Position numbers and translations under genes: made by a program. DNA of 64,000 bases from assembly GCA_002269645.1 (NCBI GenBank), contig NIVC01001316.1:1-64000 (forward strand). Direction: 5' to 3'. Below are positions 41,291 through 59,960 of this stretch, piece by piece (position 1 is the first letter of the stretch; each line of letters opens with the position of its first letter). The stretch is from Macrostomum lignano (taxonomy: Eukaryota). The notes under the pieces were generated by a model, which had not been told where the DNA came from, made no database searches, and worked only from the letters and a program-made list of their open reading frames with translations.

Positions 41291-42238
41291 AAGCGTCAAA
41301 GATTTGTTTTTCGTAACGCTTTACAGACTGCAATTCTTGACCAATTTTGATCGCGTTTTCGCCAAAAGTTTTGTAATTATCTGGAAAGAGGACAGCTAAA
41401 ATTTCTTTAATCTGCTTTAATGCTAAAGGTATTAAATATTCGAAAAACAAGTTTATCTAAATGCTTTTAATGGAAGGCCAAGCAGCGTTGAATTCTTGAC
41501 TGGCTGAATTCCAATTCTAAATGATTGCGCCACAACTGCGTACTGCATATTCTCGCTATAAACTGACTCTGAGCTTTTCAGCAGGAGGCAGTGTGCCAAG
41601 CATTGCGCAGGCACTCTGGAGGAAGAGAGAAATCAGCCAGTGCATTTTAAAAGTATTGAAATTGAGAGATTTACTTAACTGTGCAATGGCTCTGCCAGTA
41701 CCAAAACTGTGCACACTGAGCAGCCTATCACTGCTATGTATTTGACTGCAGTGCCGAAGCATATATGTCTGATTTTTGCGCCCTCCCATCAGTAGGCGGA
41801 ATACCCGCAGTGTAGGCAGTAGGACTAGGTTTAGGCTAGGCGCAAGGTCCAAGGTTCGAGTCCGCCTCGCCGGCCGATAATTAAAATTAAATAAATTAGT
41901 TCATTTATACCTAGCGCCTCAACTAATTGAATCACTTTTGATTAATTAGTAAGCCACACTCCATGAATGATTTTTGCTATTCAGCACAATATTTTTGAGC
42001 ACAAGTTGCTAAACAAATTTGAATTTGATTTGATTTCAGCCAGTGCATTTTAAAATTTGATTTGTAAAAGACTGCTTTGTGTATTACTGCTCCCGAATTG
42101 CAGACGATGCTGCTAAATAGCTAAACAGCTGAAGGTACTGCTAAATGCTGAGCTGCGCAAAAGACTGCCGATATGTATCGAAAATTGATTAGTGAGTCCT
42201 ACTAAATGCTGAGCAAATTATCAGATTACTGAAAGAAT

Positions 42239-42712
42239 AGTAGAAGGCATGAGGGGGCTTTTGGGACAAAATTTTTCACCTCCTCCATAATCCACCTAAA
42301 TCCATCCATATTATCCCTGACAGAATCAGAAAAAAGGGGGGTCGCACTCGCTCCGAAAACGTCCTCCATAATCCACCTAAATCCATCCATATTATCCCCG
42401 ACAGAATCAGAAAAAAGGGGGGTCGCACTCGCTCACAAAACATCCTCCATAATCCTATTAAATCCATCCATATTATCCCTGACAGAATCAGAGCATTATC
42501 CCTGACAGAATCAGAGCATAACAGTAGGACACCTGTTATGCTCACTGACACTGACATAATCCACTGACATCCACCCATAGCATTTTCGAAACAATCAGAA
42601 AATAATCTGCATTCTTCTCCCCACATTCAATCCGCAACGTGCTACCACATCCCTAAGACTTTAAATCATCAGCGCAGGGTCCTTACCCTTTGAAAAAATC
42701 TAAATTTTCTCT
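42239..42712 (+). repeat. Left TIR of copy 2 (internal 81-bp repeats, 11-bp-stem hairpin)
   Basis: Reverse complement of 57872-58346 with about 8 substitutions counted by eye. Confidence 0.95.
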
Positions 42713-42736
42713 GAATCTTGATTGTCTTTTATATGC

Positions 42737-43415
42737 TTACGAAGCTTCGTAAATTGAAATTTTCTGTCGCTAAAGATATTTACTCTGAACTACTACTTCT
42801 ACTAGCAGTAAGTTAAAAACATATTTTAGTATTTTCTGCTTTTTCATTAAAGAGTTTACGAAGCTTCGTAAATTGAAATTTTCTGTCGCTAAAGATATTC
42901 ACTCTAAACTACTACTTCTACTAGCAGTAGGTTAAAAACATATTTTAGTATTTTCTGCTTTTTCATTAAAGAGTTTACGAAGCTTCGTAAATTGAATTTT
43001 TCTGTCGCTAAAGATATTTACTCTGAACTACTACTTCTACTAGCAGTAAGTTAAAAACATATTTTAGTATTTTCTGCTTTTTCATTAAAGAGTTTACAAA
43101 GCTTCGTAAATTGAAATTTTCTGTCGCTAAAGATATTTACTCTGAACTACTACTTCTACTAGCAGTAAGTTAAAAACATATTTTAGTATTTTCTGCTTTT
43201 TCATTAAAGAGTTTACGAAGCTTCGTAAATTGAAATTTTCTGTCGCTAAAGATATTCACTCTAAACTACTACTTCTACTAGCAGTAGGTTAAAAACATAT
43301 TTTAGTATTTTCTGCTTTTTCATTAAAGAGTTTACGAAGCTTCGTAAATTGAAATTTTATGTCGCTAAAGATATTCACTCTGAACTATTACTTCTACTAG
43401 TAGTAGGTAAAAAAA
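42737..43415. repeat. 119-bp tandem array (~5.7 units), each with palindrome TTTACGAAGCTTCGTAAA
   Basis: Palindromes at 42737 (16 bp), 42855, 42974, 43093 (1 mismatch), 43212 and 43331. Confidence 0.95.
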
Positions 43416-43573
43416 CGTGTCGAGTCAGATTCCAATTAACAAAAAAAACCGAATTATGTTGATTCAGTTATTATTTATTTTAATAATTATAAAGAGGCCT
43501 TTTTTTAACGACTATTCAATTTATATAAATCACCATTTCAAGCACAACAGACAGCCATGTAGTAGTCACTTCT

Positions 43574-57569: not shown

Positions 57570-57630
57570 GTCGTCTTCAGACTTGTAAAATTACGATATA
57601 AGCCGCCAGGTACAACCGTGTAGTTGGCTA

Positions 57631-57867
57631 CTACAACTGCCTTATAACTTCAGCAAAGTTATAATAGCTGTCAAAATTGTTAATGACTACTCCGTGTTTT
57701 TCAAACCAGTGAGATTTAAGTGCTTGATTAATATTAGAGGCATTGATATCAACGCCGGGCCAATATTTTCTCATGTACTCGCTGCATTCAAGTTTGCATC
57801 GGTACTTGCTCTTGAAATTAGGCTCATGCGCTTTGTAATAAGAACCTGGAGAGACAACTGGAAACAT
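57631..57867 (-). CDS. Small TIR-proximal orphan protein (78 aa)
   Basis: ATG lies 4 nt inside the right TIR boundary; homolog of 26669-26908. Confidence 0.6.
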   Translation of the reverse strand: MFPVVSPGSYYKAHEPNFKSKYRCKLECSEYMRKYWPGVDINASNINQALKSHWFEKHGVVINNFDSYYNFAEVIRQL

Positions 57868-57871
57868 TTTT

Positions 57872-58346
57872 AGAGAAAATTTAGATTTTTTCAAAGGGTA
57901 AGGACCCTGCGCTGATGATTTAAAGTCCTTGGGATCTGGTAGCACGTTGCGGATTGAATGTGGGGAGAAGAATGCAGATTGTTTTCTGATTGTTTCGAAG
58001 ATGCTATGGGTGGATGTCAGTGGATTATGTCAGTGTCAGTGAGCATAACAGGTGTCCTACTGTTATGCTCTGATTCTGTCAGGGATAATGCTCTGATTCT
58101 GTCAGGGATAATATGGATGGATTTAATAGGATTATGGAGGATGTTTTGTGAGCGAGTGCGACCCCCCCTTTTTTCTGATTCTGTCGGGGATAATATGGAT
58201 GGATTTAGGTGGATTATGGAGGACGTTTTCGGAGCGAGTGCGACCCCCCTTTTTTCTGATTCTGTCAGGGATAATATGGATGGATTTAGGTGGATTATGG
58301 AGAAGGTGAAAAATTTTGTCTTAAAAGCCCCCTCATGCCTTCTACT
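57872..58346 (-). repeat. Right TIR of copy 2
   Basis: Inverted copy of 42239-42712, ending CCTTCTACT and followed by the TSD. Confidence 0.95.
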
Positions 58347-59960
58347 AAGAATCATTGCTGAGAAGACTCATTCATGCAGACTGCAATGGGAAAAATTGAA
58401 AAAAAAACTGCTGAGGTATTCCTCCAGACTTATGAGTACTCGTAGGATACTCGTACCTGCAGGCTGCTAAGAGTATGACTGCAGTCTGTTTGCGGGATTA
58501 GAAGGGATAGCTAATTTCAGGTTGTTGTGGGGATAACTGCCGATTTCTGGGGGGGGGGGAGGGGTTAACTTCAAAGTGCGAAGTTACTAAACTTCTAGAA
58601 TAGTATAGGGCTTTTAGTAGAAGGTCGGCAGTTCGAGTCTACATTGAAGCAGCGAATTTATCTTTGTGACAATAATCATTGTTTCCTACGGGGATTCATG
58701 CAAATTTTTAACATTTTATTTTGTATACACTTTTGCTGGGGCTACGCTAAGCTTCAAGAGCAGCGCTTATCTGCTGTAAGTGCTAATTTGCAAAGGGTAT
58801 TGCTAATCTGGGTGAGCAGCGCTAATCGGGGAGAGCAGTGCTAATCTGTCGACGCATATAATAAAATAATAAATATGTAAGGAGATTAAATTTACCCTGC
58901 AAGTTGCAAAAACATTTTAAATGGTTTCGATTATGCAGAAGCAATATGGCCATATGCAAAGATTAGTGGCCATCTGCTCACTGATTGTGCAAAACAGTGC
59001 TGGTGAGCCATTGCTAAACTGCTGGTGAAGCATTGCTAAACTGCATTGCTAAACTGCTGGTGAACCATTGCTAAACTGCAGAAAGCTATAGTGAAATATT
59101 GTATTTTTTAATATAAACTTCTTTTAAACAGAAGGAAACGCAAAGGCAAGAAAAAACGAACAAGAATCATCATGGCAATCATAAAAGAAGCGCCCTGTCG
59201 AAAGTAAAAGGCTCATCGGGAATTACTGACTGTTAAGACTGCTAAGACTATTGCTACGAGCATAATGCTCGTATGGCAAATTGCTGTGATATATCAATAC
59301 TCATGGAAGGATTTATAGGATATCAAGACAAAGGGGAATTGCTATAATTGTCATTCTGGGGAGAATTGCTTTGAATTCAAGGTTCATTTGTGAAATTGCA
59401 GAAATTAATTGTTGAAATGCAAGTGCCAAGATATCAAATGGTTAGTCACTCAATTTTCAGGCTCATGGGGAAATTGCTAACATTTCCAAAGCTCATTGGG
59501 GAATTGCTGAAATTTGACTACAGGTTAAGGGTTATGGTTTTGGTTGAATTATAGAGCGATCGTCGTGACAATCATCAATGATCCATCGAGGAATTGCTAA
59601 GATTAAAGGCTCTTGGGGCGAATTACTTAAATGCTTTGGCTCTACAGGGAATTGCTGATAGGTCAAGGCTTTCGGTGAAATTCAGATTACAAACCTTATG
59701 AGGAAGTTACTTTAATGCTGAGGCTCAAGGCTCATAGTGGATTGCTAACATGCCAAGACTCACTTAAGGGTAGGTTTGGGGCTTAGGGTCAGTTTTGGTT
59801 CAATCATAGATTAACCGCTGTCAACAATCAATTAAAGACTTGCTAAGATATCAAAACTCATGGGGGAATAGCTGAGTTATCAAGGCTTATAAGGGGATTG
59901 CTGAATTCTTGGGAGAGGGGAGTTGGGTTGTTGGGATGTCAAGGCTAATTACTGCGCTGG

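Follow-up and report, generated by a model that had tools for sequence, protein, structure and literature searches.

Positions 1 to 64,000 of Macrostomum lignano contig NIVC01001316.1 (assembly GCA_002269645.1; this whole stretch of 64,000 nucleotides is hereafter the window) contain an ordinary, real and young Polinton, or Maverick, of 16,108 bp at window 42239-58346. The reading favored here, to which a probability of roughly 0.9 may be attached, is that the element is a recently integrated Polinton of the adintovirus type and one of a few hundred copies in this flatworm that exchange a left-end cassette, that the breaks in its reading frames are mostly assembly errors, and that its cassette would supply a heat-driven helix-turn-helix (HTH) regulator acting on its own array of palindromes; binding to that array, taken alone, is rated lower below.

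Ends, genes and age of the element

The element begins with AGTAG and ends with CTACT, is flanked on both sides by the hexamer AAGAAT, and has terminal inverted repeats (TIRs) of 477 and 478 nt that differ by 8 substitutions and one 1-nt gap. These ends bear out the original prediction of a 16.1-kb element with TIRs and a 6-bp target-site duplication (TSD). Size and TIR length fall within the ranges given for Polintons in PMC10748475 (13-25 kb, with TIRs of 100-1,500 bp), and the TSD lies within the 5-8 bp typical of the group. The duplications show integration by the rve integrase; a perfect 6-bp TSD is found in 13 of 18 two-ended copies (the window copy counted), and five of six positions match in 2 more. 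Across copies, the TIRs are between about 400 and more than 1,000 nt long (L035, L042, L046, L060 and window 26157-27083), and the left end of some copies also carries an inverted, sometimes diverged, duplicate of the 78-aa open reading frame (ORF) and penton end found at the right. The left flanking hexamer of copy C5022 is the right hexamer of C4651, and its right flank is that of C2192 (L017, L018, L022, L030), a pattern that may reflect either chimeric assembly or recombination between insertions.

Between these ends lies the Polinton/adintovirus gene set as defined by Starrett et al. 2021 (PMC8502044), with a DNA polymerase B of the protein-primed type (pPolB), an rve integrase, a double jelly-roll (DJR) major capsid protein (MCP), a packaging ATPase and an adenain-type protease. 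Ends, TSD, gene set and capsid fold all fit the Polinton/adintovirus identity first proposed. The features are as follows.

42233..42238, no strand: left TSD, AAGAAT (from sequence)
42239..42715, plus: left TIR, with AGTAG start and internal 81-bp repeats
42737..43414, no strand: tandem array of 5.7 units of 119 bp, with six 18-bp palindromes TTTACGAAGCTTCGTAAA (4 exact, 2 with one change)
43574..44443, minus: cassette gene, an ORF of about 280 codons for an all-helical protein with predicted HTH; frame break near its start
44455..44525, minus: upstream of the cassette gene, a heat-shock-element (HSE) cluster, nTTCnnGAAnnTTCn, and a TATAAA box
44652..45152, minus: PLA2-like protein (Pfam PF08398, Phospholip_A2_4), open frame, no intron
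45182..46218, plus: rve integrase (PF00665, E 2.1e-9), catalytic-core motifs kept; frameshift near 46016
46285..46680, plus: adenovirus pX (mu core)-like protein (Adeno_PX, PF05829, E 3.6e-7), its frame interrupted close to the start
46821..50662, plus: pPolB (DNA_pol_B_2), 5 frameshifts and 1 in-frame stop
50761..51162, plus: adenain-type cysteine protease (Peptidase_C5, PF00770, E 1.6e-4, above cut-off), open frame
51167..51824, minus: protein with two hydrophobic segments, putatively membrane-active (hydrophobicity); frameshift near 51637
51933..52742, minus: coiled-coil-like protein in which a 28-aa repeat occurs three times; its frame is open, and no family scores above cut-off
52758..53558, minus: A32/FtsK-type packaging ATPase (Pox_A32, PF04665, E 7.5e-7), Walker A GSSGSGKT, open frame
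53751..54130, minus: small amphipathic protein bearing glycine motifs and, compared with the upstream copy, one frameshift
54160..55361, minus: Q/P-rich protein; break near its end
55392..56687, plus: DJR MCP, 431 aa, open frame (Pfam, structure model)
56710..57570, plus: likely penton, with a frameshift near 57400-57460; its length in sister copies is 285 aa
57631..57867, minus: conserved 78-aa ORF beginning at the TIR border, with weak RNase T2 resemblance
57869..58346, minus: right TIR
58347..58352, no strand: right TSD, AAGAAT (from sequence)

The original prediction had staked its capsid assignment on a double jelly-roll fold, and that fold was recovered. The MCP matches DJR-like_dom (PF21738, E 5.2e-9), and the best Foldseek matches of its AF2 model, which was built from 14 sequences and is of low confidence (pLDDT 55), are all double-jelly-roll capsids, namely Sputnik (E 6.7e-12, probability 1.00), SGIV, PBCV-1 and mavirus; the same was seen in a viral library. 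The ORF directly 3' of the MCP is likely the penton, as judged from this position and from look-alikes in the Atlas that are Nucleocytoviricota clusters (0.98). Weighing against this assignment, the candidate has no match in Pfam, and PDB sequence searches with the MCP, the cassette protein and the penton candidate gave none. Of the full virion and replication module first claimed, MCP, ATPase, protease, pPolB and integrase are secured by Pfam, and the penton is a candidate by position and look-alikes. Among its several entry-type proteins, family matches were obtained for PLA2 and pX, and the others are suggested by hydrophobicity.

The pPolB includes vOTU-like Cys/His motifs (noted by eye), an endonuclease-VII-like segment, and exonuclease and polymerase motifs. 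PF03175 is matched by the pieces of the window pPolB and by the 1,028-aa frame of a second copy upstream in the window (E 2.7e-18, 66.5 bits); 765 pPolB relatives were found. The glycine motifs of the small amphipathic protein are presumed to resemble adenain sites. The 78-aa ORF looks like the second active-site half of RNase T2, at a Pfam E of 0.004 (below cut-off) and an Atlas score of 0.92 with low recognition, and its HWFEKHG motif becomes HWFHKYG in many copies, which makes RNase activity doubtful. Neither GGNCC depletion (18 sites in the window copy against 23.7 expected) nor a PLA2 intron is seen in this Polinton family; a PLA2 gene at L093:500-1021 was matched in two parts, and the gap of about 180 nt between them may be an insertion or an intron.

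The family is of substantial size. Among 352 candidates, 40 MCP matches were scored, at 91-100% identity, and 30 of the 39 best matches other than the window copy were retrieved, the copies for comparison being sampled by MCP score. The terminal 20-mer has 247 + 238 exact occurrences genome-wide (485; control 0), which suggests about 240 elements in the assembly; as certain insertions are represented by two contigs, the number in the genome would be lower. The young age claimed for the insertion holds, although for a different reason than the one offered. Similarity between the TIRs was rejected as a clock, as 4 of the 8 differences show both states among 47 other TIRs; rather, of 7,046 coding sites in the window copy only 7 carry a private substitution (0.1%), making recent integration likely.

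Copies differ from one another by a median of 1.2% in the MCP and in the polymerase core, and by 8.4% in the integrase. The trees of these three genes conflict with one another, which implies that the copies recombine. A second copy of the family lies in the same orientation at window 26157-39831, with its left end kept but without MCP, penton or right TIR, and interrupted by 1.5 kb of inserted sequence at about 30045-31568. In the integrase and polymerase trees this copy is the nearest relative of the window copy, yet it has a different left arm. The cassette protein of sister copy C66 is 100% identical to NCBI Macrostomum lignano proteins, which bears out the flatworm host considered in the original prediction. 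Of the words sampled from window 55392-57600, 81% are present in run X2, which is labeled with another organism (organism B); this may reflect a mislabel, a mixed sample or a related host.

Variable left-end cassettes and their palindromes

What sets the element apart lies in the left arm, between the left TIR and PLA2. The 24 arms compared (3 of them lacking a left end in the retrieved stretch) range from 0.7 to 3.5 kb and fall into about 14 types, sorted by hand from BLAST overlaps, with no DNA alignment between types, while the core around them is about 99% identical in the capsid and polymerase genes. Different arms are found on copies whose MCPs are only 0.15-0.23% apart, and one arm type occurs on distant branches. 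By these sequence comparisons, family members exchange a variable left-end cassette by recombination, for which the conserved TIR and PLA2 borders would provide the sites.

In the window arm, the order on the minus strand is HSE cluster, TATAAA box, cassette ORF and then the 119-bp repeat array. This cluster is the sole three-unit HSE of the window element, and a three-unit HSE was likewise identified by eye upstream in 5 of 9 independent arms with a clear cassette-family gene; a heat-shock promoter is predicted. The proteins of other arm types are homologous to the cassette protein at 20-33% identity, with those of C2709 and C66 linked weakly, and a profile search found 145 relatives. Not all cassettes are of this kind. 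An alternative at L027:1948-2577 (minus strand) encodes a RING-finger protein (PF13920, E 4e-8) with an 89-bp array behind it, and the left arm of C33 (L031) also appears by eye to encode a RING-finger protein.

The cassette protein is predicted to be an HTH DNA-binding protein. The top structural matches of its AF2 model (pLDDT 87.5) are almost all HTH DNA-binding domains, including DeoR/SorC (Z 8.1, rmsd 1.8, 53 residues aligned), P1 ParB (Z 6.7, rmsd 5.2, 84 aligned) and KorB (Z 6.5, rmsd 4.1, 79 aligned). Foldseek gave no significant match for the protein, and among 112 members of the cassette family none shares a Pfam family with another at E 0.01, a search that barely probed the helical N-terminal half. 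In the ParB, SopB and KorB systems, too, an HTH domain is accompanied by tandemly arrayed palindromes of 14-18 bp. The cassette protein differs in scoring higher on DeoR/SorC, and neither a ParB N-terminal domain nor a ParA partner was seen, so that the likeness to these partition and repression systems is best treated as analogy, not membership.

How the protein might relate to the array behind it is suggested by comparison across copies. A repeated palindrome or inverted word was identified by eye downstream in 8 of the 9 independent arms with a clear cassette-family gene, and sister cassettes carry diverged homologues of the protein beside other palindromes. The focal palindrome occurs 30 times genome-wide, on 11 contigs. 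On all 7 contigs with at least two exact occurrences, a relative of the focal protein (74-100% identical) lies directly upstream; for the 4 contigs with a single occurrence, no relative is among the matches listed. A second palindrome, TCTAACGCGTTAGA, is adjoined by a cassette gene on 26 of 28 contigs, among the first 50 of its 74 sites, a count for which the reversed-word control is uninformative, being itself frequent (460). Palindromes of at least 14 nt occur at 1.02 per kb in the arms, compared with 0.15 per kb in the core and about 0.2 per kb in shuffles. Like the swapping, this genome-wide linkage of gene and palindrome rests on the comparisons made here, and DNA binding is the predicted part.

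An alternative explanation, credible at somewhat below even odds, is that the arrays are enhancers for host factors or hairpins used in replication or recombination, which simply travel with the gene in one cassette. Several observations favor it and weigh against the array as the binding site of the cassette protein or against a strict pairing of the two. The focal core GAAgcTTC is itself a two-unit HSE, as is that of a related type, GAAcgTTC. Moreover, TCTAACGCGTTAGA adjoins two proteins only about 20% identical (on 23 and 3 contigs), and some arms carry an array with no gene or with a RING gene. At 25 additional loci, selected for the type of protein and in several cases from other Polinton families, a convincing repeated palindrome was found within 1.3 kb downstream in 5, with one more partial (a first probe missed 5), and linkage of gene and array would be expected anyway from block inheritance. 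Against this explanation stand the protein relatives upstream on every multi-palindrome contig, the cassette genes adjoining the second palindrome, the excess of palindromes in arms over core and shuffles, and the several array types that contain no HSE.

On the reading favored here, the heat-shock promoter would drive the HTH gene under stress, and its product would bind the palindromes behind the gene and so regulate or help maintain the element. That cassette proteins bind their own matched arrays is held tentatively, at close to but not above an even chance. A broader proposal, in which a stress-induced HTH protein and its operator array are swapped as a unit, forming a specificity module similar to those of phage immunity or partition, with many coexisting types and a heat-triggered switch between silent and mobile states, is speculative and rather improbable.

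Interrupted reading frames

Structural completeness, as first claimed for the element, holds for its gene inventory and ends but not for coding intactness. From the ORF map, 8 of the 14 ORFs of the window copy are interrupted in the assembly: those for the integrase, pX, pPolB, the two-hydrophobic-segment protein, the amphipathic protein, the Q-rich protein, the penton candidate and the cassette protein. Most of these breaks are likely errors of long-read assembly, although less certainly so in the window copy itself. Three lines of evidence favor such errors: flank-sharing contig pairs mostly show an excess of indels, private substitutions are few, and short reads disagree with the assembly. 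In normal decay, substitutions outnumber indels. In four of five contig pairs that share flanks, however, the counts of indels and substitutions are 25/19, 41/20, 50/25 and 1/1, with the indels mostly of single bases, and the window copy has about 11 frameshifts against its 7 private substitutions. Within 44600-52100, short-read contigs from 4 runs disagree with the assembly at 7 or more of the 8 frameshifts and at the pPolB stop.

A different possibility, distinctly short of even but to be taken seriously, is that the window copy is truly disabled, the pPolB stop and some of the frameshifts being real, and that it is mobile only with help in trans. Such decay would have to reverse the normal ratio of substitutions to indels, and it would leave the same excess in four of the five contig pairs sharing a flank to be explained. 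Several results nonetheless count for it and against assembly error as a complete explanation. The in-frame pPolB stop is private to the window copy, being absent from 24 of 24 other copies, and may be a real lesion. No single open pPolB frame is present in any of the 28 copies that cover the gene (the window and upstream copies counted), and breakage of pPolB exceeds the expectation from the MCP rate, though copies were picked for the quality of their MCP match. Of 31 copies, 22 have an open MCP frame, a proportion subject to the same selection and including one internally out of register. Furthermore, substitutions predominate in the fifth flank-sharing pair (401, against 86 indels), and the short-read contigs collapse many copies and hence report the family majority, not the window copy. 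Because no break is common to all copies, programmed frameshifting and an intron were both rejected as explanations for pPolB. Calls of intactness for these elements in this assembly are unreliable.

Propagation and relation to known elements

By analogy with Polintons generally, an excised linear copy would be replicated by the protein-primed polymerase from its AGTAG ends, could be packaged by the module of MCP, penton, ATPase and protease, and would be reinserted by the rve integrase. Release of the terminal protein by the vOTU domain, described by Krupovic et al. 2024, would be expected here from family membership. Spread only as a germ-line transposon, with the capsid module used for intracellular packaging or as a recent leftover, is less likely than not. 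It is consistent with the data in hand, assembled contigs in which no virion or free end is observed, and with nematode Mavericks, for which Widen et al. report no detected transcription, but it accords poorly with the retention of PLA2 and pX and with purifying selection on the capsid, penton candidate, ATPase and protease. Among copies, the core genes are under such selection as estimated by pN/pS, at 0.11 for the MCP (n=15, near-duplicate pairs reduced to one member and one out-of-register copy left out; 0.59 with it), 0.04 for the ATPase, 0.23 for the protease and 0.22 for the penton. Runs taken to be RNA, though they may be DNA, have even coverage of the core.

Flatworms, first supposed to be a little-studied host range, are not a new one. 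Jeong et al. 2023 (PMC10748475) already count 748 pPolB1 genes with a linked integrase, distributed over 8 of 73 Platyhelminthes genomes, and Orthopolintovirales insertions are reported in Rhabditophora (bioRxiv 10.1101/2025.04.19.649669); a flatworm term is absent from one supplement of PMC8502044. The gene content shared with Polintons/Mavericks (Polintoviricetes), including the adintoviruses of PMC8502044, extends to pPolB, rve integrase, adenain-type protease, FtsK-type ATPase, DJR MCP, PLA2 and pX, although adintoviruses have a PLA2X fusion where the window element has separate PLA2 and pX ORFs. According to the same source, Alpha adintovirus PolB is of the archetypal pfam03175 type, the Beta type is less than 30% identical to it, and PLA2 is typical of Alpha virion modules. 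On the question of Alpha or Beta, PF03175 scores only 66.5 bits on the upstream copy's pPolB. The pPolB motifs YLDANNLY and YTDTDS would fit Beta/group 1. The window MCP has no close named relative, its best database matches being at 76%, then 44%, then 24% identity, and no fusogen was recognized in the window element.

In nematode Mavericks, the same position holds a slot whose cargo varies (Widen et al., bioRxiv 10.1101/2022.07.12.499685). Their cargo consists of intron-bearing WASP proteases and KRMA kinases, whereas here it is mostly the HTH family with arrays, or RING proteins; mosaicism in general has also been described (bioRxiv 10.64898/2026.10.13.758929). In the same host, long terminal repeat (LTR) retrotransposons have canonical HSEs in their promoter that are needed for heat induction (PMC12801592, the main text of which does not mention Polintons). 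In those LTR elements the HSE has been shown to be functional, whereas in the Polinton it precedes one accessory gene and its role is predicted. HSEs are thus proven activators of other mobile elements in M. lignano, and the Polinton bears them before a gene predicted to encode a DNA-binding protein.

To our knowledge, no trigger is known for animal Mavericks. An environmental trigger was proposed for those of nematodes by Widen et al. (bioRxiv 10.1101/2022.07.12.499685). In literature searches, partly of titles and the starts of abstracts, neither this family nor a Polinton cassette combining an HTH gene with palindromes was found described. Should the cassette protein and its array turn out to form matched pairs that copies exchange, they would represent a regulatory module of a kind for which those searches found no Polinton precedent. 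The element is of value as a study system, since its family is young, numbers a few hundred copies and lies in a worm amenable to transgenesis.

Elsewhere in the window are a hAT-type transposase ORF (16116-19457, minus strand), a LINE with endonuclease and reverse transcriptase (RT) domains (22283-26054, plus strand) and, by eye, a broken Penelope-like RT/GIY-YIG stretch (809-3559, minus strand). A tandem repeat of 341-351 bp lies between the two Polinton copies (40012-41480), with another unit near 60800. An exon-like stretch at 5647-5820 (minus strand) presumably resembles a voltage-gated potassium channel beta subunit.

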